A DNA stretch of 45,161 nucleotides from Escherichia phage KW1E_UTAR: sequence record MZ506873. One strand, given 5' to 3'. Below the pieces are notes generated by a model, which ran no database searches, was not told the DNA's origin, and saw only the letters and a list, made by a program, of their open reading frames with translations. A program made the position numbers and the translations under genes. Shown here one piece after another: positions 6,194-20,809 of this stretch. Numbering within the stretch: position 1 is the first letter of the stretch; every line of letters begins with the position of its first letter.

Positions 6194-6396
6194 TAGTAAA
6201 GCCTCAGTGTGAAGCCGTTCCGTTCCTTCGCCGTGTTGGGTCTGTTCGGGTCGACTTGTCGATAAACATGGATTGTGACCTTGTAGCCCATCTTCTGAGC
6301 GACAACCAGGACCGCGAAGTCGAAGCTGAACACCAGTGCCGTGATCACGATAAGCTTCACGACCTTCCTGACTACAGCGCTGATATTACGCTTCAC
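6193..6396 (-). CDS. small membrane protein
   Basis: 67 aa with hydrophobic stretch VVKLIVITALVFSFDFAVLVVA. Confidence 0.4.
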   Translation of the reverse strand: MKRNISAVVRKVVKLIVITALVFSFDFAVLVVAQKMGYKVTIHVYRQVDPNRPNTAKERNGFTLRLY

Positions 6397-6408
6397 GGAT
6401 AACCCCTG

Positions 6409-6954
6409 TCAACTTTTGTTTAGCGCGCGTTTCCTGCGCATGTTGTCCCGGTTCTTGCGGCGGCGTTCTGCTGCCTGTTCCGGCGTCTCGTTCTTCCGGC
6501 GTTCACGTTCGCGCTGGGCTGGCGTCATCACCTGGACACGTTCACCGTTCACAGTGACACGCGGAGGGATTAGCTCACCATCGATCGCCACGGTGTTCTG
6601 TGCGACAGCATATTCGACGTAATGCTGTGCAACATCACGGATGAACTGTGGCTGTGTACCATTAAGAAAGCGAATGATGTCAGAATATCCTATCAGGTCC
6701 AGCTTTTCGACCCGATCGTTTTCACCAGCATAAAGCGACCCTGACTTCGAACCATCGATCGCACTGAAGCGTACAACGTTCGCCCCGGTAAGCGAGCGAA
6801 CCACGCCTTTGCATCGAACGATTTTACCATCGCGAATAAACAGGTCGCCGTCCTGAAGCACCACGTGCCACGAAAGCAGTACGCCGGGACGGACCAGTAA
6901 CGCCAGGTTACGCGCTGCTGACATAACTGCCGATCTGTAGTGGAATGATGACAT
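6409..6954 (-). CDS. hypothetical protein with strongly basic C-terminal tail
   Basis: C-terminus RERERRKNETPEQAAERRRKNRDNMRRKRALNKS suggests nucleic-acid binding. Confidence 0.5.
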   Translation of the reverse strand: MSSFHYRSAVMSAARNLALLVRPGVLLSWHVVLQDGDLFIRDGKIVRCKGVVRSLTGANVVRFSAIDGSKSGSLYAGENDRVEKLDLIGYSDIIRFLNGTQPQFIRDVAQHYVEYAVAQNTVAIDGELIPPRVTVNGERVQVMTPAQRERERRKNETPEQAAERRRKNRDNMRRKRALNKS

Positions 6955-8643: not shown

Positions 8644-8671
8644 ATATTACAGGAAGCGAATATTACGTCAA
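8644..8671 (-). promoter_or_regulatory. sigma70-like promoter (TTGACG-N16-TAATAT) on the minus strand
   Basis: Minus strand reads TTGACGtaatattcgcttcctgTAATAT, upstream of the 7822..8592 gene. Confidence 0.4.
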
Positions 8672-9346: not shown

Positions 9347-10774
9347 TTATTCGTCTAACAGTGGATTGTTAGCCATTATCTTATAGTCGATGTACATCTG
9401 AACGGCGTTTTCGCCACGCCCTTCGGTCCGCTCAACGATGTGGTGGGCCTTGACCAGCGCGGACAGCGCGCTAATGACAGACCCGCGTGGCATCCCGGTG
9501 ATCTCCGTCACCATGCGGCGCGCTGCTGATACAGATTCGCGGCCCTTCAGTTCGGCGCAGAACACGCGATACACCTCTTTCTGGTTATCGGTCCAGCGGT
9601 GACGGGTTCGACGCTCTTCCGGCGTTTCCTGCTTCTCTTCCTTCTGACCGACCACTTCGGCGGAGTTATCCAGGATGTACGTCATGAACGGTGATTTGTT
9701 CACTCCGGGGATCTCCGTCGGCATGTCTTCCAGCTTGATCGTGAACTGGGATTCGTACTCGTCAAGCAACGCCTTCTCTTCGGCCTTCGGGACCGACAGC
9801 GTCGGGCGACCACACAGTCGAAGCGTGGCATTGAACCCGCCGCCGCGCTGCTTGTCCGGGGTCAACATGACACCGTCGCCGTCCTTCTCACGGCGAAGAG
9901 ACCACGTCTTCCACATCGCGCCCTTCGCCGCGCCACCGCCTCGCGAATCCATCTTGCCGTCACCGGACAGGCTGGCCTTCGTCGGGTGGGACAGGAAAAG
10001 CCCGGCAGCCCCGATCGATTTGCAGAACAGCAGAGAGTTCACGCTAATGGCTTGCTGGTCATCGTTGCTGTTCTCTTCCAGCGACGAACCGTTCGACCGG
10101 ATGCAATGGGTCATGAGCGCGGCCTTAGTGTCGAACACCACCAGCTTGATCGGCTCACCAGCGGCCCAGTCATACAGCGTATTGATGTGGTTCGTCAGCG
10201 CTTCGCCTGGGCGGATGCCTTCCTTCGTCTTAACGAACGCCATAAGGTTCGGGAAGTTCGCAGTCACATAGACGCGGTCCTGAAGCTGGACGTCTTCAGC
10301 CAGTTCGATAGCGCGCAGCATAGCGCGGAATCCTTCCGGGTCCTCTGAATACACCACGACCCGCCCAGGCACCACGCGGAACGCTCCGAGGAAGTGACCT
10401 ATCTGTGTGTCGGCGATGCAAGCGGCGAGGCGCGCCACCACTGTCGACTTCCCTGTCCCTGGCCCGGCGACCAGCTCATTGATGGTGTTCGAATACAGCA
10501 TGTGCTCCACCACGACGTCGGGGACGCGGCGATCGGACACCTTCTTCTTCGTCCCGGTCAGTAGGTCCAGCTTGCGCTGAAGGTCGGGAACAGAATCGTT
10601 CTCTTTGGCGTGGAACGCGTCCATGTCCCGATAGACTTCGGCCCACTCTTCCGGCGTCAGTTCGACCTGAAAATCGTCGTCTGTCTCACTTGTCGGAACG
10701 ACCATTTCGACAGGCATGTTCTGGTTGTCTTGCGACGTCGGTTCGACACCGCCGCCATTCTCTAAGTTATCCAC
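9347..10774 (-). CDS. AAA/RecA-like ATPase with C-terminal winged-helix domain (possible replication initiator, helicase or regulator)
   Basis: Walker A GPGTGKST, Walker B-like LVVFDT, C-terminal HTH-like segment; GTG start with AGAGGG upstream. Confidence 0.7.
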   Translation of the reverse strand: MDNLENGGGVEPTSQDNQNMPVEMVVPTSETDDDFQVELTPEEWAEVYRDMDAFHAKENDSVPDLQRKLDLLTGTKKKVSDRRVPDVVVEHMLYSNTINELVAGPGTGKSTVVARLAACIADTQIGHFLGAFRVVPGRVVVYSEDPEGFRAMLRAIELAEDVQLQDRVYVTANFPNLMAFVKTKEGIRPGEALTNHINTLYDWAAGEPIKLVVFDTKAALMTHCIRSNGSSLEENSNDDQQAISVNSLLFCKSIGAAGLFLSHPTKASLSGDGKMDSRGGGAAKGAMWKTWSLRREKDGDGVMLTPDKQRGGGFNATLRLCGRPTLSVPKAEEKALLDEYESQFTIKLEDMPTEIPGVNKSPFMTYILDNSAEVVGQKEEKQETPEERRTRHRWTDNQKEVYRVFCAELKGRESVSAARRMVTEITGMPRGSVISALSALVKAHHIVERTEGRGENAVQMYIDYKIMANNPLLDE

Positions 10775-10825
10775 AGATTTTGACCCTCTCTTGACTGAAC
10801 ATTTTGTCGCGACTGTCTCGCTTTC

Positions 10826-11121
10826 TTAAGACAATACAGCATAGACGCGGCGCGCGCAACGTTCCGACGTCTAAAACATGCATATTACGACCTCACTATC
10901 AGTATGTTGTTTAACCACAGTAAGACAAAAATCCCAAAAGTGGCCCGATATCAATGACTTACGCGTGTCTTAACTTTCCGCCCCCTAATAAATAAAAACA
11001 AGTAAGACAAAACACCTCACGCGTACACTTAACTACTATATATTCCACCCTTGAGGGGTGGATATATATTAGTAGTGTGTAATAAGTGCATCTTGAGGAA
11101 AACAGACAGTCTTGTCTTAAC
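10826..11121. repeat. Cluster of five TAAGACA/TGTCTTA iteron-like repeats in an AT-rich divergent intergenic region
   Basis: TAAGACA at 10827, 10921, 11003; reverse complement at 10966, 11113; palindrome CCACCCttgagGGGTGG at 11045-11061. Confidence 0.6.
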
Positions 11122-11152
11122 TGTTCGACAAAGTAGAATCATACCTCAGTCG

Positions 11153-11161
11153 TGATATAAT
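11153..11161 (+). promoter_or_regulatory. extended -10 promoter element (TGaTATAAT)
   Basis: Perfect TATAAT at 11156-11161 preceded by TG at 11153-11154; about 22 nt upstream of the ATG at 11184. Confidence 0.4.
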
Positions 11162-11183
11162 GAACGCCACAGGAGGACGCAAC

Positions 11184-11696
11184 ATGTCAGACGAAATTAA
11201 ACACGTAACGAAGCGCGGAGTCGGAAGGCAGTTAACCTACACTGACGACGTGCCTGAACGCCTCACAGACTTCTTCGACCGTGATGTGGATGAATTCATC
11301 GTCCATAACTTCACGACCGCTGAGAAGTCGAACTATCGCGTCAAGCCCATCCCTACACTGGCAGGGTTCTGTCGCGAACTGGGTATCGCACCGTCAACGC
11401 TGCACAGATGGATGTCCGTCGAATCGCAACTGACACAGGAGCAGCGCGATGAATTGTGCAATGCTTACTCACGCGCCCGCACGCTACAGGAAAATATCGT
11501 CACCCAGATCGGCATGATGACTAATGGCACGTTCGCCGCTTTCATGCTGAAATGTAACTTCGGATGGCGTGACAACACGGAAGTGAAGACCGACGAGAAC
11601 GTGAAGCCTATCCGTGTCAAGATCGTCAGCGAACGACCTGTCGATGTAGACATCCAGACCACAGAACAGAAACCGATCGAGTGGGGTGATGACTGA
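11184..11696 (+). CDS. terminase small subunit-like HTH protein (tentative)
   Basis: VKPIPTLAGFCRELGIAPSTLHRWM HTH pattern resembles TerS families; start ATG 11184 with AGGAGG 7 nt upstream. Confidence 0.5.
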   Translation: MSDEIKHVTKRGVGRQLTYTDDVPERLTDFFDRDVDEFIVHNFTTAEKSNYRVKPIPTLAGFCRELGIAPSTLHRWMSVESQLTQEQRDELCNAYSRARTLQENIVTQIGMMTNGTFAAFMLKCNFGWRDNTEVKTDENVKPIRVKIVSERPVDVDIQTTEQKPIEWGDD

Positions 11697-11788
11697 TGCG
11701 CTGGCTTAAGATGGCGTTCATGCTGTGGTCAGGCTTCGCTACCGGGTTCACATTACGCATACTAATCAACTGGGGATTCAACCTATGA
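11696..11788 (+). CDS. 30-aa hydrophobic micro-protein (MRWLKMAFMLWSGFATGFTLRILINWGFNL)
   Basis: Not in ORF track (under 60 aa); ATGA overlaps with both flanking genes imply translational coupling. Confidence 0.35.
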   Translation: MRWLKMAFMLWSGFATGFTLRILINWGFNL

Positions 11789-12240
11789 CCACCGCAAAGA
11801 AGTTAACCAAAGCACAGAAGGCTGACCTGGCTGTCAGCGAAACGAAGGCACTGTCCGGTCATCACGTAGCCCTGGCTGGCGGTACGCTGATCGGAGCTTC
11901 GATCTCTGTCGATCCAGACGCGCAGATCAAGTCCGAGATCCTTAACGGGATCGACCAGGCGCAGCAGCGCGCGACCGAAGAGTTCGAAGCGGAAGTTCTC
12001 CACATCCTGGAAGGCGTCAGTCGTGGGGCGGTAGCCACCATCACCGGGGACCTGAAGCGCGGCTTCCTCCGTGACCGCCACAACAATGACCATCCGAACA
12101 AGCTGGTCGTGGCGCTGGTGGAACACGGCCTTCTCGATCCTGGCTGGTATCGCGGCGTCATGATCCCCACATCGATCTACCATCTGCGCATCACCGATGC
12201 CGGGCGCGACTACCTGGCTGGCGTGAAGGCTGACGGCTGA
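11785..12240 (+). CDS. hypothetical protein
   Basis: ORF-track frame 11725..12240; start chosen at ATG 11785 overlapping the micro-ORF stop. Confidence 0.5.
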   Translation: MTTAKKLTKAQKADLAVSETKALSGHHVALAGGTLIGASISVDPDAQIKSEILNGIDQAQQRATEEFEAEVLHILEGVSRGAVATITGDLKRGFLRDRHNNDHPNKLVVALVEHGLLDPGWYRGVMIPTSIYHLRITDAGRDYLAGVKADG

Positions 12241-12260
12241 CGCGACGCGAGAAGAAAACA

Positions 12261-12284
12261 GGCTGCCTCTGGGTGGCCTTTTTT
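12261..12284 (+). terminator. terminator candidate
   Basis: GGCTGCC-tctg-GGTGGCC stem with two G-U pairs followed by TTTTTT. Confidence 0.45.
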
Positions 12285-12322
12285 GCGCCTGAAATATATT
12301 ACGCGAAAGTAATCGATAGTGC

Positions 12323-12351
12323 TTGCAGTGGTGATAGCTATGTCGTAATAT
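12323..12351 (+). promoter_or_regulatory. sigma70-like promoter (TTGCAG-N17-TAATAT)
   Basis: Hexamers and 17-nt spacer read directly; upstream of the gene at 12389. Confidence 0.5.
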
Positions 12352-12388
12352 GTATTCAACGAAACGAAACAACCAAAGGAAAACGAAA

Positions 12389-12655
12389 ATGACCACAGCA
12401 GAACGCATTGCCAAAGTTTGGAACGCAAGCCGTAACGAAGACCTGAACGCTATCGCAGCGCTGGAAATCGTCATCAACACTTCGTTCGGCGCTGGCAAGT
12501 CAAGCCTGTCAGACATCGCACGAATCAGCATTCACAACATGGAAGTGACCTATCTGGACGGCTCCATCCTGACCGTTCTGGACCATTCAGCGGCGTGTGA
12601 AGTTGGGCTTACTGAATTCAGCTACGCATTCAAGGCGCAGGCTAAAGCCTGTTAA
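12389..12655 (+). CDS. hypothetical protein
   Basis: ORF-track frame 12350..12655; start chosen at ATG 12389 after AAAGGAAAA. Confidence 0.5.
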   Translation: MTTAERIAKVWNASRNEDLNAIAALEIVINTSFGAGKSSLSDIARISIHNMEVTYLDGSILTVLDHSAACEVGLTEFSYAFKAQAKAC

Positions 12656-12696
12656 TCACCACCCGGCCCTTCGGGGCCACTACTGAGGGCATCAAT

Positions 12697-12960
12697 ATGA
12701 CCACTATCGCGCAAGCTATAGACCGCGCCACTGACGAAGGCGTCACCGTTTACAACGACGTCATGATCCCGTCAAAGAAGGGCCACGCCCCTGACACTCT
12801 GACCTTCATAGTTCGCAAGGGTAACAAGTCAGTCATGTGCACCCGACAGAAGGGGACGCTGAACGTCTGGACCATCACTGGCTTCGGCATCACTCCGCGC
12901 ACTCACACCGGGCGCGGGTTCACCATCATGGTCGCTATCGATCTGGTTCTGGGGGTCTGA
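12697..12960 (+). CDS. hypothetical protein
   Basis: 87-aa ORF with GAGGG upstream. Confidence 0.5.
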   Translation: MTTIAQAIDRATDEGVTVYNDVMIPSKKGHAPDTLTFIVRKGNKSVMCTRQKGTLNVWTITGFGITPRTHTGRGFTIMVAIDLVLGV

Positions 12961-12961
12961 C

Positions 12962-13288
12962 ATGTTTAAATTACTGAAATGCAAGATCGACGCAGAGCGG
13001 GCGCTTGTGTCCGCCGCTATCACCGACGCGCTGGAAGCTGTACGCGAAGCCGAAGCGCAGGGCATCACCGTAACCGAAGCCAGCCCGGTAGACTGTGGCT
13101 TCGACTACGTGGTCCTTGAGTTCTTCGTGTACGGATGCAAGCCAGGCGGGAACCGTCGCCGACTGGGTGCGATTCAGGACCGCCCCGGCTCCATGCTGTG
13201 GCGCATCCACGGACGTCAGGGAGCCTACTCACTGGCAGACATCATCCGCCGCATGACGAACGGCATCATCGAAGGGTCAGCACTATGA
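12962..13288 (+). CDS. hypothetical protein
   Basis: 108-aa ORF tightly packed after the previous gene. Confidence 0.5.
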   Translation: MFKLLKCKIDAERALVSAAITDALEAVREAEAQGITVTEASPVDCGFDYVVLEFFVYGCKPGGNRRRLGAIQDRPGSMLWRIHGRQGAYSLADIIRRMTNGIIEGSAL

Positions 13289-13521
13289 ACACAGTACAGG
13301 CGAAGTCATTAGCGAAAAGCAAACAGATGGAGGTTACGGCAGACCACACCCTGAACGGGAAGACATACTTCGTGGTGATTGATACCACCAATGACGAGGC
13401 GGTGATTGTAAACCGAGCCAGTCGCGTATGGTGGCGGCCTGAAGGGGCTATCGCTAACCATCTTCGTGGGGTGGCTATCGAAGTGGCTGTTTGCTCGTTA
13501 TTATGCCGCCGTAATAAATAA
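13285..13521 (+). CDS. hypothetical protein
   Basis: Start ATG 13285 in ATGA overlap with upstream stop (ORF-track frame 13135..13521). Confidence 0.45.
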   Translation: MNTVQAKSLAKSKQMEVTADHTLNGKTYFVVIDTTNDEAVIVNRASRVWWRPEGAIANHLRGVAIEVAVCSLLCRRNK

Positions 13522-13524
13522 TCC

Positions 13525-13552
13525 TTGACGCGTCATTCGTGGCGCGTAATAC
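13525..13552 (+). promoter_or_regulatory. sigma70-like promoter (TTGACG-N16-TAATAC), copy A of a duplicated 42-bp element
   Basis: Shares an identical 21-mer and ATTCGTGG spacer core with the element at 20806-20847. Confidence 0.5.
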
Positions 13553-13582
13553 TGTCCAGACACCAACCAATGAGGCCACAAC

Positions 13583-13915
13583 ATGATAAGCATGACCAAA
13601 ATTAAGCTTAACAACCACAATGGATACTCTTCTCTGAAGGACTACCCGTTCCCGGTTGTCGTGAAAGTGATCAACGAGCGAAGCGCAGCGTATTGCATCA
13701 ACGATGACGGCGGACTGATTGAAGTGTCATGTGACGAACTCGTCAAGGCAGCGCCTGAATGGGATGCTCCTTCATGGTTCGAAGGCGAGACAATCCACTT
13801 TTCACGAGGTGGCTGGTTCGATCCTGGAGAGAGGGCAGGCTGGAGTCCGATCGACGACAACCCGTTCGCGCACTGGAACGCCCTGAAGTCATCCCGTCCC
13901 GTGGGTGCGCTATGA
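13583..13915 (+). CDS. hypothetical protein
   Basis: 110-aa ORF with TGAGG upstream. Confidence 0.5.
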   Translation: MISMTKIKLNNHNGYSSLKDYPFPVVVKVINERSAAYCINDDGGLIEVSCDELVKAAPEWDAPSWFEGETIHFSRGGWFDPGERAGWSPIDDNPFAHWNALKSSRPVGAL

Positions 13916-14100
13916 GAAGAGTACGTGTCGCAAACTGCCCGGAGTGCGGGCAGATTGTACCGCTTGATCGGGCTAAGCCTCGCACGCGTCGCGATGGTCA
14001 GGTCCTCATTCAGCGCCTGGCGTTCACCGCGTGCGTCAACTGCTACCGCGTATTCAACAATGACAATGTTGAATCGTGGCTGACTAAACTGGGGGAATAG
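13912..14100 (+). CDS. small zinc-ribbon protein (CxxC...CxxC)
   Basis: MRRVRVANCPECGQ...CVNCYRVF; ATGA overlap with upstream gene. Confidence 0.45.
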   Translation: MRRVRVANCPECGQIVPLDRAKPRTRRDGQVLIQRLAFTACVNCYRVFNNDNVESWLTKLGE

Positions 14101-14370
14101 ATGATTCGAAAATCCGTATTAGACGACATGGACACAGACGCGGCGCTTCAGGCGCTGCTGTCACTGTCTGAGCGAAAGGCTATCAGTCAGACTGACCTGG
14201 CTGAAGGCGTGAAGCACATCATGCGCCGGGCGGCGTTCAGCGTCTTCCAGCTTCATCGCCTACAGTCCGGGCTGGACATGCCTGACGTCATGCCGTCATC
14301 GATCGAACTGGTCATCAAAGACCTGGCGCTTAACCAGGCAATCAAAAACCTGAATGAGTTACACCAATGA
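14101..14370 (+). CDS. hypothetical protein
   Basis: 89-aa ORF starting 1 nt after the upstream stop. Confidence 0.45.
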   Translation: MIRKSVLDDMDTDAALQALLSLSERKAISQTDLAEGVKHIMRRAAFSVFQLHRLQSGLDMPDVMPSSIELVIKDLALNQAIKNLNELHQ

Positions 14371-14873
14371 AGAAGCACCTGTCCGAAGCATTAACCAAAC
14401 TAGTTAGCGGGTACGAATGCCGCACCTATGGCAGCATCAAAGCGGAAGCTGTAGCGCTTGAGCAGTTAAAGATCGACCTTCACGGTCAGCTTAAGTTCTG
14501 CTATCACCATCTTACAGCGGACGCTCGCGGGTTCATCGATCGGGCCGGGAGCGCAAGCACCATGCATTACGCGTTAACGTGTATCACTGCCGCCGCTGCC
14601 GGACTGCTGACGTCTTACGAGATCGACAGGCAGATGAACGAGTCCATCATGTCGAACGTGACAGCGCAGGTGGACAGCCTGGCGATGAAGGCCACGACCA
14701 GACACGTCGGCCTACTGGATGGGCTGGCACAGCTTCAGCGCTACGACATCGAAGAGAAGAGCGGGAACCCGTTCGCCTCATACCGTTGCATTGAGGAAGA
14801 CGAGTTCGGCGACTATCTGAAGCGGGAAGATGTGATTCGTCTTCTGGGCGGGAACCCTGAAGAGTACCCGTAA
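14367..14873 (+). CDS. hypothetical protein
   Basis: 168-aa ORF, ATGA overlap. Confidence 0.5.
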   Translation: MKKHLSEALTKLVSGYECRTYGSIKAEAVALEQLKIDLHGQLKFCYHHLTADARGFIDRAGSASTMHYALTCITAAAAGLLTSYEIDRQMNESIMSNVTAQVDSLAMKATTRHVGLLDGLAQLQRYDIEEKSGNPFASYRCIEEDEFGDYLKREDVIRLLGGNPEEYP

Positions 14874-14940
14874 AATAATACTTGCGCCGGGCGTAATAGT
14901 CCGGCATTATTACGACTCACACAACAAAGGAGTGAATGAC

Positions 14941-15237
14941 ATGGCAAGAACGAAGGCTTTATCCGTACTCACGAACGCGCAGGTCTACACGTTGCGCCGC
15001 CTGGCCTCTGGTCGGTCGTACATGTGTCAGGGCAACGGGAAGCGAGCATTCGAGCGCCGCAAGGAATACCGCGTAGGCTTCGACGATGTGAACGCGCCGT
15101 CAATCCCGCCACTGATTCGGAAGGGACTCGCCAGGATTGACCCGCGCTACACCAACCCGAACCCGACCAGCTATTACCCGGTAGTTCTGACCGTGGAAGG
15201 CGTCAAGGCAGCAAAAGAGGCGGTGATTAATGATTAA
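14941..15237 (+). CDS. hypothetical protein
   Basis: ORF-track frame 14932..15237; start chosen at ATG 14941 after AGGAG. Confidence 0.5.
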   Translation: MARTKALSVLTNAQVYTLRRLASGRSYMCQGNGKRAFERRKEYRVGFDDVNAPSIPPLIRKGLARIDPRYTNPNPTSYYPVVLTVEGVKAAKEAVIND

Positions 15238-15949
15238 GCGCATGGTCATCTGGTCACTGTTCGACGGCTCCGGCTACGCGGTGAAGGACTACGCTGAAGC
15301 GGGCCACATCTGCTTTTGTGTCAACGCGGACGATGCCGACCACGGCGACTACACCAACCTGAACGCCAGGATCGAACACCACAACATTCACTACGTGAAC
15401 CGCTGGATCGACAAGGAGTTCTTTGACGACGCGGTCGCCGGGCTTATCCCTGAACTGGGTAAGCCGGACCTTATCCTTGCGTTTCCTCCGTGTACTGACC
15501 TGGCGAACAGCGGGTCACGATCATGGGCGAAGAAGCGCGAAGCGAACCCTGACTTCCAGATCGAGGCGGCACTGACTGCCCGAATCGCTGCCAATCTGGG
15601 GAATTACTTCCAGGTTCCGTGGATGGTAGAGAACCCGGCTGGCATGTTAAGCACTCTCTGGCGCAAGCCGGACGTGTACGTCGAGCCGTGGCACTTTGGG
15701 CGCTACCTGCCTGAAGGCGATGTCCATCCACACTTCCCGGAGTACATCAAAGCGCGCGACGCGTACCCGAAGAAGACGGGCCTTTGGTTCGGTCAGGGGT
15801 TCGTCATGCCACTGGCGAAGCCTGTCCCTATCGGTAAGGGGCTGTCCACTCAGTACAAGAAGTTAGGCGGCAAGTCCACGAAGACGAAGGTTATCCGTTC
15901 ACTCACTCCGCGCGGACTGGCGCGGGCAATCTATGAGGCAAACAAGTGA
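15230..15949 (+). CDS. DNA cytosine-5 methyltransferase-like protein, short and non-canonical
   Basis: Motif I-like LFDGSGY, motif IV-like DLILAFPPCTD (PPC-T instead of PCQ), motif VI-like ENP; 239 aa, no room for a typical target-recognition domain. Confidence 0.5.
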   Translation: MIKRMVIWSLFDGSGYAVKDYAEAGHICFCVNADDADHGDYTNLNARIEHHNIHYVNRWIDKEFFDDAVAGLIPELGKPDLILAFPPCTDLANSGSRSWAKKREANPDFQIEAALTARIAANLGNYFQVPWMVENPAGMLSTLWRKPDVYVEPWHFGRYLPEGDVHPHFPEYIKARDAYPKKTGLWFGQGFVMPLAKPVPIGKGLSTQYKKLGGKSTKTKVIRSLTPRGLARAIYEANK

Positions 15950-16299
15950 AGAAGATCGTCATCGCGCTATCACTGGCGCTGTTAACGTCAACGGCAGCGA
16001 ACGCCGTGGTAATCACTAAACCGCGCGACTACACGCCGGAAAACTCCGGCGCTCTGAACGCGCAAGCAGTAAACATCACTCCGGGGAAGAAGATCGGCTT
16101 CGTCACCTGTGGAGGGAATAACTTCGGCGGCGCTGGCTCGCTGGGGTGCAAGGACTACCAGGCCAAAGACAAACCCACTATTCCGTGGACCGCTTACCCT
16201 GGCTATAGACTGGGCGCAGCTATTCCGGCATCATATCGCGTGACCGGAATCAGCTTCGACAGTTACAACCATTCCGCAACTATCTACTTTGAATATTAA
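15946..16299 (+). CDS. secreted/periplasmic protein with cleavable signal peptide
   Basis: MKKIVIALSLALLTSTAANA signal peptide, two Cys in mature part; GTG start overlapping upstream stop. Confidence 0.55.
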   Translation: MKKIVIALSLALLTSTAANAVVITKPRDYTPENSGALNAQAVNITPGKKIGFVTCGGNNFGGAGSLGCKDYQAKDKPTIPWTAYPGYRLGAAIPASYRVTGISFDSYNHSATIYFEY

Positions 16300-16307
16300 G
16301 GGGCATC

Positions 16308-16514
16308 ATGTTAACGATTATTCTGTGGGTTCTCGGCGCTGTACTCACCTGGCGACTGTGTAGTCGCGACAGCACCACGCCGGAAGGCATCATGAAGTTC
16401 GCGCTGGGAATCCCTGAGCGAATCGCGGCTTCGGCGTTCTGGCCTGTCTGTGCTGCATACGTACTCTATGACGCGGTCATGGAGTGGATCGAAGAACGAC
16501 GCAATCGCCCGTAA
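16308..16514 (+). CDS. small membrane protein
   Basis: 68 aa, hydrophobic N-terminus MLTIILWVLGAVLTW. Confidence 0.45.
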   Translation: MLTIILWVLGAVLTWRLCSRDSTTPEGIMKFALGIPERIAASAFWPVCAAYVLYDAVMEWIEERRNRP

Positions 16515-16633
16515 TGGCGAAGCTGAAGTCCTGGGCGGTCAGGCATAAGTCGGGCCGCATATTGTTCATCACCAACAGCAAGCGGACCGCAATGAACCGC
16601 CTGTCGATGGGCTGGAAGGTAACGAGACAATGA
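16514..16633 (+). CDS. 39-aa basic micro-protein (tentative)
   Basis: Hand-translated MAKLKSWAVRHKSGRILFITNSKRTAMNRLSMGWKVTRQ; coupled by TAATG and ATGA overlaps. Confidence 0.3.
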   Translation: MAKLKSWAVRHKSGRILFITNSKRTAMNRLSMGWKVTRQ

Positions 16634-16803
16634 AGGCTCTGTTCTGGATCGTGGTTTTCGGTCTACTGTTCTTAATGGCTGGCCTTGAGTCAAACAGTCG
16701 CCGTGAACGTTGCGAAGTCGACATGGCAAAGCAGCTACACAGCGAAGCCATTTATCAGCATGGTGAATGTATTGTGAAAGGATGGGGCAAGGTTCGACTA
16801 TAG
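16630..16803 (+). CDS. 57-aa small membrane protein (tentative)
   Basis: Hand-translated MKALFWIVVFGLLFLMAGLE...; ATGA overlap with upstream micro-ORF. Confidence 0.35.
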   Translation: MKALFWIVVFGLLFLMAGLESNSRRERCEVDMAKQLHSEAIYQHGECIVKGWGKVRL

Positions 16804-16823
16804 CCACCAACCTGTAATAGAAT

Positions 16824-16856
16824 GGCCCCATTGATTTAACCTCATGGGGCCTTTTT
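16824..16856 (+). terminator. rho-independent terminator directly upstream of the terminase large subunit gene
   Basis: GGCCCCA-...-TGGGGCC hairpin followed by TTTTT; terminase ATG follows at 16858. Confidence 0.55.
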
Positions 16857-16857
16857 C

Positions 16858-18207
16858 ATGTCCACAGTTTCAGACCTGTCCTCATTCACAGAACTGACCC
16901 TTACGCCGCCACAGTGGGAATTCCTACAGCTTGACTGTAAACATCCGGCATTCGTCGCCGGGTTCGGTACTGGCAAATCCCAGACCCTTGCAGTGTCAGC
17001 AGTCATCGACTCATGCGAAGGCGGGGCCGACTCCCTCGTCGCTATCCTGGAACCAACCTTCGACCTGTGCCGCACGATCGCCGTCCCCCGCGTCCAGCAG
17101 ATCCTGTCTGAACTGGGAATCCGATCGAAGTACAACAAGAGCGACAACACGATCTACACGTCACACGGCGGGGTGGGTGACTTCCTGTTCCGCTCAATGG
17201 ATAACCCTTCCCGACTGGTAGGCTGGGAAGCGTACAGCGCACATCTTGACGAACTGGACACCCTGAAGAAGAAGGACGCAAAAAGCGTATGGCTGGCGAT
17301 GATCGGGCGTACCCGACAGACCGTTCGGGAAGTCAGCCTGATGGACTGGCTGCCGACCACACGACCAGCCAACCGCGTCGCCGCTTACTGTACGCCTGAA
17401 GGGTTTAACTTCCTCTATGGGCGATGGGCGAAGGACAAGGACCGCGCGCGTGATGCTGGCTACGGCATGATCCAGGCTGCGTCCATGTCTAACCCGTTCC
17501 TTCCGCCTGGCTACCTGGACAGCTTGCGAGCCAGTTATGACCCGCAACGCTTCCAGGCGTACGCTGAAGGCAGATTCGTCAACCTGAACGGCGGGTCCAT
17601 CTATCACAAGTTCGATCGCAAGCTGAACGGGTGCGACACGACAATCCAACCGGGCGAACCGCTGACCATCGGGCAGGACTTCAACGTCGGCAAAATGGCC
17701 ACTGTTATCTACGTGGACCGCTGGGGGGATGATGGTCTGGAGGAACTCCACGCCGTCGCGGAAATCAAAGACGGAGTAGACACACCGGACGTGATCGAGA
17801 AGTTAACGGCAGCCTATCCGGGCCACGAATTGAACCTGTACCCGGACGCCAGCGGACAGAACACTTCATCGAAGTCCGCTTCCGTGTCAGACGTCGGCCT
17901 GTTCGAAGAGGCTGGCTTCCTGGTGCATGTCCACGGCTCTAACCCACGCGTCAAGGACCGCGTTATCAGCATGAACACCATGATCTGTGACATGAATGGA
18001 CGCCGTCGCCTGAAGGTGAACGAAAAAGCCTGTCCGACGTTTGCAGACTGTCTGGAGCAACAGATCTACGCGGAGAACGGGGAGCCGGACAAGAAGGGGG
18101 GCAAGGACCATATGAACGATGCTGGCGGCTATCCTGTAGTTTATCGCTTCCCTATTATCCGTGATAAGATGGACGCCTCTGACATGACTATCAGATTCGC
18201 ACGATAA
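16858..18207 (+). CDS. terL: terminase large subunit
   Basis: Walker A-like VAGFGTGKSQT near N-terminus, Walker B-like HLDELD, about 450 aa, directly upstream of portal. Confidence 0.85.
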   Translation: MSTVSDLSSFTELTLTPPQWEFLQLDCKHPAFVAGFGTGKSQTLAVSAVIDSCEGGADSLVAILEPTFDLCRTIAVPRVQQILSELGIRSKYNKSDNTIYTSHGGVGDFLFRSMDNPSRLVGWEAYSAHLDELDTLKKKDAKSVWLAMIGRTRQTVREVSLMDWLPTTRPANRVAAYCTPEGFNFLYGRWAKDKDRARDAGYGMIQAASMSNPFLPPGYLDSLRASYDPQRFQAYAEGRFVNLNGGSIYHKFDRKLNGCDTTIQPGEPLTIGQDFNVGKMATVIYVDRWGDDGLEELHAVAEIKDGVDTPDVIEKLTAAYPGHELNLYPDASGQNTSSKSASVSDVGLFEEAGFLVHVHGSNPRVKDRVISMNTMICDMNGRRRLKVNEKACPTFADCLEQQIYAENGEPDKKGGKDHMNDAGGYPVVYRFPIIRDKMDASDMTIRFAR

Positions 18208-18221
18208 GGAGACAGACCATA

Positions 18222-19691
18222 ATGGCTGAAAATATGAACGTGGACACGAAGCACCCGCTATACACGGAATTCCACCCAGAATACAAACTGGTGGCTGACT
18301 GTGTGGCGGGCGAGCGTCGCATCAAGGCGGGGACCACGCTTTACCTTCCGCGCGTGTCCTCATGGGAAGACCAGCGCTACCTGAATTATATGCTTCGCGC
18401 CCGCTTCATGAACGGGACCGGGCGAACCCTGTCGGCCCTTATCGGTATCGCGATGGAGAAGCCGCTCGGAATCAACATGGACACGCAATTCGACTACCTG
18501 CGCGAAGACAGTGACGGGAAGGGCAAGTCCATCACCCAGCTTTTCCGTGATGCCCTAAGCCAGAACCTTCAGAAAGGGCGCGGCGGGATCCTGCTGGACA
18601 ACACGGCAATCAATGACGGCGAATACATGATCGGCGAGCGCACGATCGCCCAGAACTCAAAGGAACGCTGGGTCCTTCGCCACTTCGACGCGACGCACAT
18701 CATCAACTGGCGCACAGTCAACGGCAAGCTGTCCCTTCTGGTCCTGAAGTACCACGAAGAGATCGAGACAGAGGGCTTCGAGCATGAGCCGATCACCATC
18801 TGGCTGGAGTACCGCATGAAGGGCGGTCGATGCTACGGGCGAATCTGGAAGTCACCGCCAGGCGTCACCACTCCGACGGCTGTGGTAATGGGTACTGGCG
18901 AAGCGGAAACGGACCTGATCCCGCTGTCAATTAAGGGTAAGGCCCTAGATCATATCCCGTTCGCCTGGTACGGTTCGGAGAACAATGACGAGATCCCGGA
19001 CACGCCGCCTCTGGCTGACCTTGCGCGCCTGAACGTGGGCCACTATCAGGCCGACGCCGATATCGCTGAATCAGCATTCCAGGCCGGGCAACCTACAATC
19101 ACCATTTCCGGGCTGTCGGAAGCATGGGCGAAGAACTTCATGAAGAAGGGCGTGGAAGTGGGTTCGACGGAAGCCGTACTTCTGCCAGCTAACGCAAAAA
19201 TGGAGATCGTCCAGGCGAAGGAAACCACGGCATCTACAAAGCGCCAGGAAGCGCTGGAAACTCAGATGGCTAAGATGGGTGCGAAGTTCATCGAACGCGG
19301 CGCAGGGAACCGCACAGCGACCCAGGCGAGCGACGAAGCGCAGACGGACAATTCCATCCTGTCGCAATGCGTCGGGAACGTCGAAGCAGCTATCAACCTG
19401 GCTATGTCTTGGGTGGGCGCTGGCGAGATCACCGCGAACAAACGCTTCGTTGCCATTCAGGTAGACAGTCAGGCTCTGGTGGCTATGATGTCGGCAGTTC
19501 AGGCGAACCTGATGACCATCGAAGACTTCGTCCGCTGGCAGCAGCAGATCGGCCTTGCAGACCCGAACGCGACCGTCGAACAGATCGTCACCCAATTACG
19601 GAACCAGGTTATCGACCTGCCGGACAGTGACTTCACCGACGTGACCGACAAGGACGCGAAGACCACAACCGAAGAGGATGACGCGGAATAA
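18222..19691 (+). CDS. portal protein
   Basis: 489 aa immediately after terminase large subunit; strong RBS AAGGAG; acidic C-terminus. Confidence 0.75.
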   Translation: MAENMNVDTKHPLYTEFHPEYKLVADCVAGERRIKAGTTLYLPRVSSWEDQRYLNYMLRARFMNGTGRTLSALIGIAMEKPLGINMDTQFDYLREDSDGKGKSITQLFRDALSQNLQKGRGGILLDNTAINDGEYMIGERTIAQNSKERWVLRHFDATHIINWRTVNGKLSLLVLKYHEEIETEGFEHEPITIWLEYRMKGGRCYGRIWKSPPGVTTPTAVVMGTGEAETDLIPLSIKGKALDHIPFAWYGSENNDEIPDTPPLADLARLNVGHYQADADIAESAFQAGQPTITISGLSEAWAKNFMKKGVEVGSTEAVLLPANAKMEIVQAKETTASTKRQEALETQMAKMGAKFIERGAGNRTATQASDEAQTDNSILSQCVGNVEAAINLAMSWVGAGEITANKRFVAIQVDSQALVAMMSAVQANLMTIEDFVRWQQQIGLADPNATVEQIVTQLRNQVIDLPDSDFTDVTDKDAKTTTEEDDAE

Positions 19692-20809
19692 TGGCGAAAT
19701 CAGTCAATCAACGACTGGCAGACGAGGCGGTTAAACACCGCCTTTATCTGGCCCGTTACGGAACCGGGACCGCGCGCAAGATGCAAGCGGCGATGAAAAA
19801 GGCCGAACTGGAAATCAGTGTCCAGCTATTCCGCGCGCTTGAACAGGTTCAGCCCACAGCGATGAACTGGAACCAGCGCCACCTGGCGCAGATCAAGAAG
19901 TCCATCCAGAAGACCGTGTTCAGCGTATACGAACAGGTCTTCGGTCAGCTTAACGCAGACCTGAAGGAGCTAGTCCAGTATGAAGCGAAATATCAGGCGG
20001 CGAATCTCGCGTCAGCGATCCCTCTGGAGGCTCAACCGTTCGTGAACATCCAGTCGACGACGTGGTCACAGGTCTGGGCGTCAGCCACGGCGAAGCCATT
20101 CCAGGGCGCTCTTCTGAAGGAGTGGGCCGACCGTCTGCCGGAAGCGCTGGTCAACAAGATCGGTAACGCTGTCCAGCAGGGCGTGTTACTGGGCGAAAGC
20201 TACACCGATATCATCAAGCGCGTGAAGGGAACGAAGCAAGCAGGGTATGAAGACGGCGTCGTCGGGCGTCAGCGCAAGGGCGATCTGGCTAACCTGGTGA
20301 AGACCGCCGTGAACCATGTCACCGCTGAAGCGCGTGAAGAAACAGCGAAGGTGAACGAGGACATCATCCGGGCGCGGGAATGGCTATCCACTCTGGACAC
20401 GCACACATCGCCGATGTGCATCATTCGCGATCGCCTGATGTACACCGCTGGCAGCAAGCCGAAGCCAATCGGACACAGCATTCCATACGGGGCTGGACCT
20501 GGGAGGCTTCACTTCTGCTGTCGCTCCACTGAAACGTGGGTCATCAAGTCGTGGGAAGAGTTGGGTATTCCAATGAAGGAGCTGTCACCGGGTACGCGCG
20601 CCAGCATGAACGGGCAGGTCCCGGCAAACATGACCTATTCGAAGTGGCTGGCCCGACAGGACTACTCCACACAGGAGCAAGTATTGGGCGTGACCCGCGC
20701 GCAGATGCTACGCGACGGCAAGATCGACGTCCCTGATCTGTTCGGTGATAAGGGCGAATGGCTGACTCTGAAGCAACTGGCGGAATTAGACAGGATTACA
20801 GATTCGTAA
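19691..20809 (+). CDS. head morphogenesis protein (Mu F / SPP1 gp7-like)
   Basis: Position after portal; HTSPMCIIRD resembles the conserved Cys motif of MuF-like proteins. Confidence 0.7.
   Translation: MAKSVNQRLADEAVKHRLYLARYGTGTARKMQAAMKKAELEISVQLFRALEQVQPTAMNWNQRHLAQIKKSIQKTVFSVYEQVFGQLNADLKELVQYEAKYQAANLASAIPLEAQPFVNIQSTTWSQVWASATAKPFQGALLKEWADRLPEALVNKIGNAVQQGVLLGESYTDIIKRVKGTKQAGYEDGVVGRQRKGDLANLVKTAVNHVTAEAREETAKVNEDIIRAREWLSTLDTHTSPMCIIRDRLMYTAGSKPKPIGHSIPYGAGPGRLHFCCRSTETWVIKSWEELGIPMKELSPGTRASMNGQVPANMTYSKWLARQDYSTQEQVLGVTRAQMLRDGKIDVPDLFGDKGEWLTLKQLAELDRITDS

Follow-up and report, generated by a model that had tools for sequence, protein, structure and literature searches.

The packaging genes of Escherichia phage KW1E_UTAR (sequence record MZ506873; the whole stretch of 45,161 nucleotides is referred to here as the window) raise the question of where the terminase small subunit is encoded. 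The large-subunit gene, terL (16858..18207, + strand, 449 aa), is identified by matches to Pfam Terminase_6N (5.3e-13) and Terminase_6C (9.9e-6) and to phrog_10250 and phrog_2, and is followed by a portal protein gene (18222..19691, +; Pfam DUF4055, 9e-31; phrog_145, 1e-107) and, 3' of it, a Mu F-like head morphogenesis gene (19691..20809, +; phrog_241, 6e-130). The TerS-like gene (11184..11696, +; ATG start with AGGAGG 6 nt upstream) encodes a 170-aa protein, and was reported in the initial annotation to be set apart from terL by about 5 kb; the coordinates proved exact, with 5,161 bp between the terS stop and the terL start. Either the packaging genes are split, or the 11184 product is another helix-turn-helix (HTH) regulator, in which case TerS itself would be among the unassigned small proteins encoded in between. 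The gap contains 15 plausible + strand ORFs (o01 to o15), or 16 if a doubtful 30-aa ORF (11696..11788) is counted, rather than the "about 18" first listed. Many were described as translationally coupled, which is borne out by 9 of the 15 junctions from o01 to terL that overlap or are at most 8 nt apart (ATGA, TAATG, TAGATG and GTGA types); their "early-type" character was inferred in the same annotation.

The 11184 product matched Pfam GP3_package (PF16677) with a score of 32.0 bits (E 1.5e-7, residues 50-134; curated cut-off 29.4 bits) and PHROG 'terminase'/TerS families with E-values of 1.6e-22 (phrog_3064, 'terminase'), 4e-6 and 6e-5, and PF16677 is carried by 33 of its 38 database homologues. 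Searching the PDB with a 39-sequence profile gave Sf6 gp1 as the top four matches (E 1.4e-3 to 3.8e-3, the N-terminal GRPxxY motif included), as well as matches to P22 gp3 (E 0.23, residues 15-110) and to 2ao9, a Bacillus cereus protein deposited only as 'Phage protein'; single-sequence phmmer with the 11184 product gave no match to solved TerS proteins. Matches to transposase-type HTH families were weak and sub-threshold (HTH_Tnp_1, E 0.009). When all six frames of the window were searched with the profile of 39 family members, the 11184 ORF was recovered at E 1e-70 and the next best match had an E of 3.9, and neither the family models nor the profile found a TerS-family match among the 15 intervening ORFs, in agreement with the earlier designation of 11184..11696 as the sole TerS-like candidate. 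Sf6 gp1 (PDB 3HEF, 4DYC) and P22 gp3 (PDB 3P9A) have PF16677 in common with KW1E_UTAR TerS, which is ~12% identical in sequence to these solved proteins and differs from them by an extra predicted beta-hairpin of ~25 residues (39-53) that separates the HTH from the first helix. The protein would comprise an N-terminal HTH, a long helical core for oligomerisation and a C-terminal tail that is conserved; as a TerS of this type it would be expected to assemble into a ring of 8-11 subunits, to bind pac DNA and to stimulate TerL. Across relatives, TerS/TerL identities to the window are 100/99, 78/89, 74/83, 58/72, 51/68 and 47/65%, and TerS divergence keeps pace with TerL divergence. The direct TerS function of the 11184 product, like the location of pac, is a prediction from sequence.

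The synteny of related phages agrees with this assignment, with terS orthologues adjoining or overlapping terL in several of them. In the metagenomic phage L011 (ENA ERZ28599741) and Serratia phage vB_SmaS-Smarc2, the TerS stop and the TerL start are 75 bp and 148 bp apart, respectively, leaving no room for a second TerS. In Dhillonvirus Ioannina, Pantoea phage MED16 and Vibrio NF, the terS orthologue overlaps the next large ORF, as it does in ~20 distant IMG/VR loci; this ORF is TerL by Pfam in 6 of the 10 overlapping loci tested. L011, Smarc2, Ioannina and MED16 encode homologous TerS proteins (29-58% identity) and Terminase_6-type TerL, with the portal and Mu F-like genes in the same order as in KW1E_UTAR. 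The gap measures 1,040 bp in L017 and 2.2-2.3 kb in K34PH164, L009 and L018; in Ymer it is 1.7 kb to the annotated start of an intein-containing terL, or 2.6 kb to the resumption of TerL homology. It reaches 4.8 kb in L008, 5.0 kb in KLB16, 5.3 kb in L006 and 5.4 kb in KLB22, compared with 5.16 kb in the window. Across the family, the gap widens in steps, from 75 bp through 1-2.6 kb to 4.8-5.4 kb, and gap content differs lineage by lineage, being mosaic even among near-identical phages. An immediate terL neighbour, which is typical of the family and not strictly defining, is lacking for terS in the window and present for the orthologues of L011, Smarc2, Ioannina, MED16, NF and the majority of the distant IMG/VR loci. 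The gene order is unusual but unproblematic, and is already visible in annotated relatives.

The same layout is found in Klebsiella phages vB_KM5a1-KLB22 (PP554336) and KLB16 (PP197198), and is already known in that the GenBank record of KLB22 annotates the same order: 'terminase small subunit' is followed by 16 CDS, of which one is a C-5 cytosine methylase and 15 are hypothetical, and these by the terminase large subunit. KLB22 TerS and TerL are 100% and 98.7% identical, respectively, to the KW1E_UTAR proteins. KLB22 has been placed in the proposed Ca. Mavericviridae, Ca. Buckeyevirus (PMC11845039), and the terminase and packaging passages of that paper do not comment on the terS/terL split.

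The locus is very probably explained by a real TerS at 11184..11696 and a lineage-specific accessory island that parts terS from terL, with separate predicted transcription units; that is, the packaging genes are split, as the first of the two original options proposed. The ancestral order would be terS immediately upstream of terL, retained in several relatives, and the island would have expanded as genes were added and replaced at this junction, so that terS lies 5.2 kb from terL because the lineage accumulated 15 small accessory genes in between. In P22 and Sf6, by contrast, terS is adjacent to terL. TerS would act in trans with TerL, starting headful packaging, and adjacency of the two genes would thus be unnecessary; the split layout leaves the current understanding of packaging unchallenged. 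The series from 75 bp to 5.4 kb within one family makes this a clear case of accretion at the junction of two essential, co-evolving genes.

The first intervening gene, o01 (11785..12240, +), encodes a protein of 151 aa that has a winged-helix DNA-binding domain at its C-terminus, and belongs to the same predicted operon as terS. The first part of the accessory island (12389..15237, +) consists of o02 (12389..12655), o03 (12697..12960), o04 (12962..13288), o05 (13285..13521), o06 (13583..13915), o07 (13912..14100), o08 (14101..14370), o09 (14367..14873) and o10 (14932..15237), all on the + strand, with family matches only to PHROGs of unknown function; o07 has a zinc-ribbon-like CxxC...CxxC pattern. 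The next gene, o11 (15230..15949, +), encodes a 239-aa C5-cytosine DNA methyltransferase (phrog_757, 7.6e-80; FPPC motif in the translation; no Pfam or NCBIfam match). The KLB22 and KLB16 annotations name its counterpart a C-5 cytosine DNA methylase; L006 has none at this position, and that of L011 is located elsewhere on the other strand. The last part, o12-o15 (15946..16803, +), matched phrog_8805 and phrog_14089, two families without an assigned function, and comprises o12 (15946..16299, 117 aa, signal-peptide-like N-terminus), o13 (16308..16514, 68 aa, hydrophobic), the very conserved o14 (16514..16633, 39 aa, pI 12) and o15 (16630..16803, 57 aa, hydrophobic N-terminus), all on the + strand, with maximum 19-residue Kyte-Doolittle values of 2.07, 1.77, 0.12 and 2.22, respectively. 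As candidates for a true TerS near terL, these four were rejected, since o12, o13 and o15 contain a strongly hydrophobic segment, o14 has only 39 aa, and none matches a TerS family.

The island cargo, which includes the C5 DNA methylase, winged-helix proteins, the zinc-ribbon protein and small membrane proteins, varies between close relatives. TerS and TerL of KLB22 and L006 are 99-100% identical to those of the window, yet identity in the island is 59-99% where a gene is present at all: neither o03 nor o06 is represented in these two closest relatives (o06 has a match of only 31% in KLB16), o07 has a counterpart in KLB22 alone, and the KLB22 island is without o03, o06 and o15 and carries three other ORFs around o10. 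No homologues of the 15 ORFs were found in the gaps of Ymer, L009 and K34PH164, and distant relatives without any of them in the gap still have 65-72% identical TerL. As judged from these comparisons, the terS-terL gap is a lineage-specific, fast-changing accessory block. With a methylase and small DNA-binding and membrane proteins there, the island is a reasonable place to search for anti-defence or host-takeover genes.

The arrangement of predicted promoters and terminators suggests that terS-o01, the island and terL form separate transcription units. The first would begin at a promoter-like region (11112..11161, +) in which the consensus scan identified two elements, TTGTCT-16-TAGAAT (11112..11139) and TGATATAAT (11153..11161), a perfect extended -10 that is retained in KLB22, L006 and KLB16 and, almost unchanged, in L008 and Ymer; the unit would end at an intrinsic terminator-like hairpin (12260..12285, +; 8-bp stem then T6) that is kept in five genomes, with differences that preserve the stem. 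The island would be driven by one or more sigma-70-type promoters, the candidates being TTGCAG-17-TAATAT at its start (12323..12351, +), whose GCTTGC and TCGTAATAT blocks do not vary across five genomes despite differing downstream genes, and TTGACG-16-TAATAC in the o05/o06 intergenic gap (13525..13552, +). A -10 of the same 'cgTAATAT' type as in the latter is also present at two - strand positions of the leftward operon, 8671 and 6412. Scanning 10500..18500 for the sigma-70 consensus gave 6 sites against 4.6 +/- 1.9 expected and hence no promoter enrichment, nor was there an excess of terminators in the region. The initial annotation had given the gap genes their own promoters, a claim that finds no backing in the scan as a whole and is partly supported by the conserved promoter-like element at 12323..12351 and the intergenic one at 13525..13552. 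Promoter and terminator activity across the region, and the interplay of these elements, are read from sequence features.

Immediately upstream of terL, a -10-like TAGAAT is directly followed by a predicted hairpin, GGCCCCAT-N12-ATGGGGCC with a T5 tract (16818..16855, +; -19.5 kcal/mol, z -2.5), which ends 2 nt before the terL ATG and holds the SD-like GGGG of terL in its 3' arm. It is conserved in KLB22, L006, KLB16 and L008, and missing where terS abuts terL, as in L011 and Smarc2; no terminator hairpin precedes terL in Ioannina and MED16 either. A 48-kb Klebsiella phage clade has the version TGcTATCAT plus hairpin, in which a compensatory change turns one A-T pair into G-C, and as there is only one such pair, support for the hairpin comes mainly from conservation. 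In the model of separate transcription units, the -10-like hexamer could restart transcription within the 5' arm of this predicted terminator, which would free the terL ribosome-binding site. More tentatively, we propose that the terS/terL junction might serve accessory genes as a landing pad insulated from neighbouring transcription, with a conserved terminator/promoter module at either end, in which the downstream overlapping promoter and terminator hairpin would stop island transcription and hide the terL ribosome-binding site. If so, terL would be translated only from transcripts starting inside the hairpin, and the cargo might have anti-restriction, host-takeover or exclusion functions. 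The conserved predicted terminator abutting the terL start codon is in any case a testable small regulatory element.

Between terS and the leftward AAA_25 (RepA-like) gene lies a 409-bp divergent control region (10775..11183). The heptamer TAAGACA occurs six times in the 45-kb window, and five of these copies are in this region (10827, 10921 and 11003 on the + strand; 10966 and 11113 on the - strand); the same spacer in relatives has other repeated 7-mers. The repeats may represent an operator, a pac site or the iterons of an origin. It is conceivable, though unlikely, that a true TerS also autoregulates through them, as pac and operator combined in a self-controlled terS operon, much as SPP1 pacL overlaps the terminase promoters. 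One copy overlaps the -35-like hexamer at 11112, the repeat sequence shifts lineage by lineage along with the proteins, and a pac site in Smarc2, known by the depositor's annotation only, lies 142 nt upstream of terS in the equivalent spacer. The repeats are, however, equally explicable as iterons of the AAA_25 (RepA-like) protein or as operator sites of o01, the winged-helix protein, and in KLB16, where TerS is still 78% identical, the repeat differs and the replication gene is unrelated, a pattern that fits the replication protein no less well.

A genome rearrangement that moved terS, or the block from terL to the tail genes, would lead to the same end state as gradual insertion, and the comparison is unrooted; we nevertheless consider it improbable, as in every relative terS keeps its left neighbours (the divergent spacer and the AAA_25 gene), terL keeps its right neighbours (the portal and Mu F-like genes), and the gaps are graded with lineage-specific content, as repeated insertion and replacement would produce.

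That the 11184 product is an HTH regulator merely resembling TerS, with the real TerS an unassigned small ORF near terL, is highly improbable: its HTH with the weak HTH_Tnp_1 match, its position as first gene beside a divergent control region with repeated motifs and its distance from terL fit a regulator, but it scores above the TerS family threshold and its profile finds solved TerS first, its orthologues in L011, Smarc2, Dhillonvirus, MED16 and NF lie directly upstream of terL with no rival candidate there, and no island ORF either matches a TerS family or is common to the relatives with 65-72% identical TerL. Neither a non-terminase assignment for 11184..11696 nor a TerS match near 16858 was found.

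The accessory island invites comparison with morons, accessory genes with transcription of their own that have been inserted among the conserved late genes in lambdoid phages. Like these, it consists of variable genes between two conserved virion-assembly genes, with promoter-like and terminator-like flanks; unlike single-gene morons, it comprises 15 genes in several translationally coupled runs and lies between the terminase genes. For annotation, the matter is settled in that, in this phage group, the gene for the small terminase heads the rightward operon and is not a terL neighbour, so that automated 'look next to TerL' rules miss it; terS is still labelled hypothetical in KLB16 and several relatives.

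The window is a complete siphophage genome of 45,161 bp, in which a rightward block spanning about 28 kb begins with ORF 11184..11696 (+) and extends over the terminase large subunit gene (terL, 16858..18207, +) and the portal, Mu F-like and tail genes. A 409-bp spacer (10775..11183) separates this block from a leftward AAA_25 (RepA-like) gene (9347..10774), the last gene of the leftward operon. ORF 11184..11696 and terL have exactly the coordinates assigned in the initial annotation and lie 5,161 bp apart. The closest annotated relative is Klebsiella phage vB_KM5a1-KLB22 (KLB22, PP554336), with about 90% nucleotide identity over 10800..18300; passages of PMC11845039 assign it to the proposed family Ca. 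Mavericviridae. A literature search found no described precedent in this phage group, and no paper on KW1E_UTAR or Serratia phage Smarc2.

ORF 11184..11696 encodes a 170-aa protein, with AGGAGG located 6 nt 5' of the ATG. The product passes the Pfam GP3_package threshold (32.0 bits against a cut-off of 29.4), its other Pfam matches being sub-threshold transposase-type helix-turn-helix (HTH) domains and nothing else, and PF16677 is present in 33 of its 38 database homologues. It also matches phrog_3064 'terminase' at 1.6e-22 and two small terminase (TerS) PHROGs; NCBIfam gave no match for it or for nine proteins encoded between it and TerL. Searches of PDB sequences by single-sequence phmmer or with a shallow 16-sequence profile returned nothing relevant. 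Only the deeper profile of 39 homologues, run against all PDB sequences, reached Sf6 gp1, which supplied the best four matches (E 1.4e-3 to 3.8e-3) in an alignment taking in the N-terminal GRPxxY motif and the HTH, followed by 2ao9 (deposited only as 'Phage protein', Bacillus cereus) and then P22 gp3 (E 0.23). The AlphaFold2 model (pLDDT 71) contains a helix (23-31), a β-hairpin (39-53), the HTH (59-77), a long helix (85-113) and a further helix (116-126), followed by a disordered yet conserved tail ending in WGDD. Foldseek comparison of the monomer model with the PDB gave no match below E 1; TerS protomers are elongated, and monomers of this shape give poor alignments. When all six frames of the window were searched with the family profile, ORF 11184..11696 (E 1e-70; next best E 3.9) was detected and nothing else, in agreement with its earlier description as the only TerS-like candidate. 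Judged by its sequence matches, the product belongs to the Sf6 gp1 / P22 gp3 family.

Synteny, the comparison proposed in the initial annotation, decides the identity question at the sequence level. In metagenomic phage L011 (ENA ERZ28599741) a TerS 58% identical to that of the window is encoded 75 bp from terL, and in Smarc2 (51%) the gap is 148 bp and contains one 50-aa ORF; a depositor-annotated pac site lies 142 nt upstream of the Smarc2 homologue. In Dhillonvirus Ioannina, Pantoea MED16 and Vibrio NF (25-29%) the two genes overlap (-1 to -8 nt). About 20 more distant IMG/VR homologues, from loci retrieved with the 16-sequence TerS alignment, share 1-32 nt with the large ORF that follows, which Pfam classes as TerL at six of ten tested loci. 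Intermediate gaps are found in L017 (45%, 1.04 kb), Pectobacterium phage Ymer (47%, 1.7 kb to the annotated terL start and 2.6 kb to the resumption of TerL homology) and the 48-kb Klebsiella phages K34PH164, L009 and L018 (47-48%, 2.2-2.3 kb), and large ones in L008 (74%, 4.8 kb), Klebsiella phage KLB16 (PP197198; 78%, 5.0 kb), L006 (99%, 5.3 kb) and KLB22 (100%, 5.4 kb). Identity to the window drops in step for TerS and TerL (100/99, 78/89, 74/83, 58/72, 51/68 and 47/65%). Ymer TerL (OP748252.2, 2451..4715) is annotated as a 754-aa hypothetical protein and is interrupted exactly within the Walker A loop by an intein-like insert of about 286 aa (AGFG/CVHPH...HIHHN/TGKSQ, against AGFGTGKSQ in the window).

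The GP3_package match, together with synteny with the adjacent genes of relatives, makes it very probable that terS and terL are split packaging genes, the first of two readings offered in the initial annotation. The second, in which the 11184 product is a different HTH regulator and the true small subunit is hidden among the small ORFs, is highly improbable. For the 15 intervening ORFs, the terS-terL gaps of Ymer, L009 and K34PH164 contain no homologue, and the gaps of L011 and Smarc2 are too small for an alternative TerS; taken together, these observations refute a hidden TerS. The intervening ORFs themselves weaken it further, as o12, o13 and o15 encode a strongly hydrophobic segment and the o14 product has only 39 aa.

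The non-adjacent order is atypical for the Sf6 gp1 / P22 gp3 family, and is mechanistically unproblematic because the terminase subunits assemble in trans. KLB22 already shows this order in its GenBank annotation, and the passages on terminase and packaging in PMC11845039 do not discuss it. Drexlerviridae, described in part of that paper as closely related to Ca. Mavericviridae, include the T1-like phages T1 and Rtp, in which the terminase genes are adjacent (PMC8421802). The split reading yields a correct annotation of the small terminase, a clear case of genes accreting stepwise at a single junction, and a small, conserved and testable terminator/promoter element at the terL start.

The 5.2 kb between terS and terL is a mosaic accessory island. 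We counted 15 credible + strand ORFs (o01 to o15, 39-239 aa), or 16 with a doubtful 30-aa ORF (11696..11788), fewer than the roughly 18 reported initially; the extensive translational coupling noted there holds, as 9 of the 15 junctions from o01 to TerL overlap or are separated by at most 8 nt. KLB22 and L006 match the window at 99-100% in TerS and TerL; in these phages, island genes are 59% to 99% identical or absent. Among these close relatives, o03 and o06 occur in the window only and o07 has a counterpart in KLB22 only, while KLB22 lacks o15 and L006 lacks o11 and o12. Recognisable content is limited to a C5-cytosine methyltransferase (o11; phrog_757 at 7.6e-80, FPPC motif), the zinc-ribbon-like o07 and, at the 3' end, one signal-peptide protein and two small hydrophobic proteins. 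L011, without the island, encodes a methylase homologue elsewhere on the other strand, which fits the view of island genes as movable accessory genes. Overall, the island resembles a large insertion of the moron type.

The very basic 39-aa product of o14 (16514..16633, pI 12) is 92-95% identical in KLB22, L006 and KLB16, in the last exceeding the conservation of TerL, and 79% identical in L008; the neighbouring o13 and o15 fall to 28-63%. Because the L008 substitutions are mostly synonymous, o14 is taken as a real coding gene. A role as a packaging factor or cis-acting element was considered and rejected, given this coding signature, its restriction to the KLB clade and a length too short for TerS.

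The claim that the intervening genes have their own promoters stands in part. Over 10500..18500, a σ70 consensus scan found 6 promoter-like sites (4.6 ± 1.9 expected), and terminator-like sites also numbered 6 (7.2 ± 2.5 expected), neither in statistical excess, so the case for internal promoters rests on conservation among relatives. A terminator-like hairpin 3' of o01 (12260..12285, 8 bp, GC-rich, T6) and the promoter-like TTGCAG-17-TAATAT 3' of it (12323..12351, +) are conserved in five genomes, even where flanking genes differ, and the o05/o06 gap contains a further site of this cgTAATA type (13525..13552, +). Putative promoters of the shared form TTGAC(A/G)-N16-18-(c/t)gTAATA(T/C) were observed both at these two island sites and in the leftward, presumably early, operon (8644..8671 and 6383..6412, -), which hints that the island may be co-regulated with the leftward genes.

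Directly 5' of terL lies TAGAAT-GGCCCCAT-N12-ATGGGGCC-T5 (16818..16855), which ends 2 nt short of the ATG and holds the sole SD-like sequence of terL, GGGG, in the 3' arm of its hairpin. In the window, L001, L002, L004, L006, L008, L009, L017 and L018, a GC-rich hairpin and T-run finish 0-2 nt short of the terL start codon; the -10-like hexamer in front of them is either TAGAAT or the extended -10 TGcTATCAT. The KLB clade keeps this element; among the 48-kb Klebsiella phages, TGcTATCAT replaces TAGAAT and one stem pair shows a compensatory A-T to G-C change. It is conserved in two clades with unrelated upstream genes, and is absent where terS abuts terL. TAGAAT occurs three times in the whole window, two copies being just upstream of terS and terL. 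A reading of the copy before terL as nothing but the A-rich flank of a bidirectional terminator was rejected as a general explanation, since TGcTATCAT in the 48-kb clade is unpaired with the T-run. On the simplest reading of these elements, we hypothesize three separate transcription units: terS-o01, the island and a terL-led late block. Transcription starting about 7 nt past the -10-like hexamer would begin inside the 5' arm of the hairpin; terL transcripts would then escape the terminator, and their ribosome-binding site would no longer be occluded.

Upstream of terS, a perfect extended -10, TGATATAAT (11153..11161), is located 22 nt 5' of the ATG; the KLB22, L006 and KLB16 sequences retain it and those of L008 and Ymer nearly do, and it was missed by the consensus scan because it lacks a -35. 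Its presence suggests that terS may be transcribed by unmodified host RNA polymerase. The spacer 10775..11183 also holds five of the window's six copies of the heptamer TAAGACA, three direct and two inverted, one of which overlaps a -35-like TTGTCT at 11112. Such spacer repeats might serve as operators, as origin iterons or as pac repeats. The spacers of relatives each carry another repeated 7-mer, for example TAGTAAA (five copies) in KLB16, TACGCGA (seven) in L009 and GTGGGGA (five) in Ymer.
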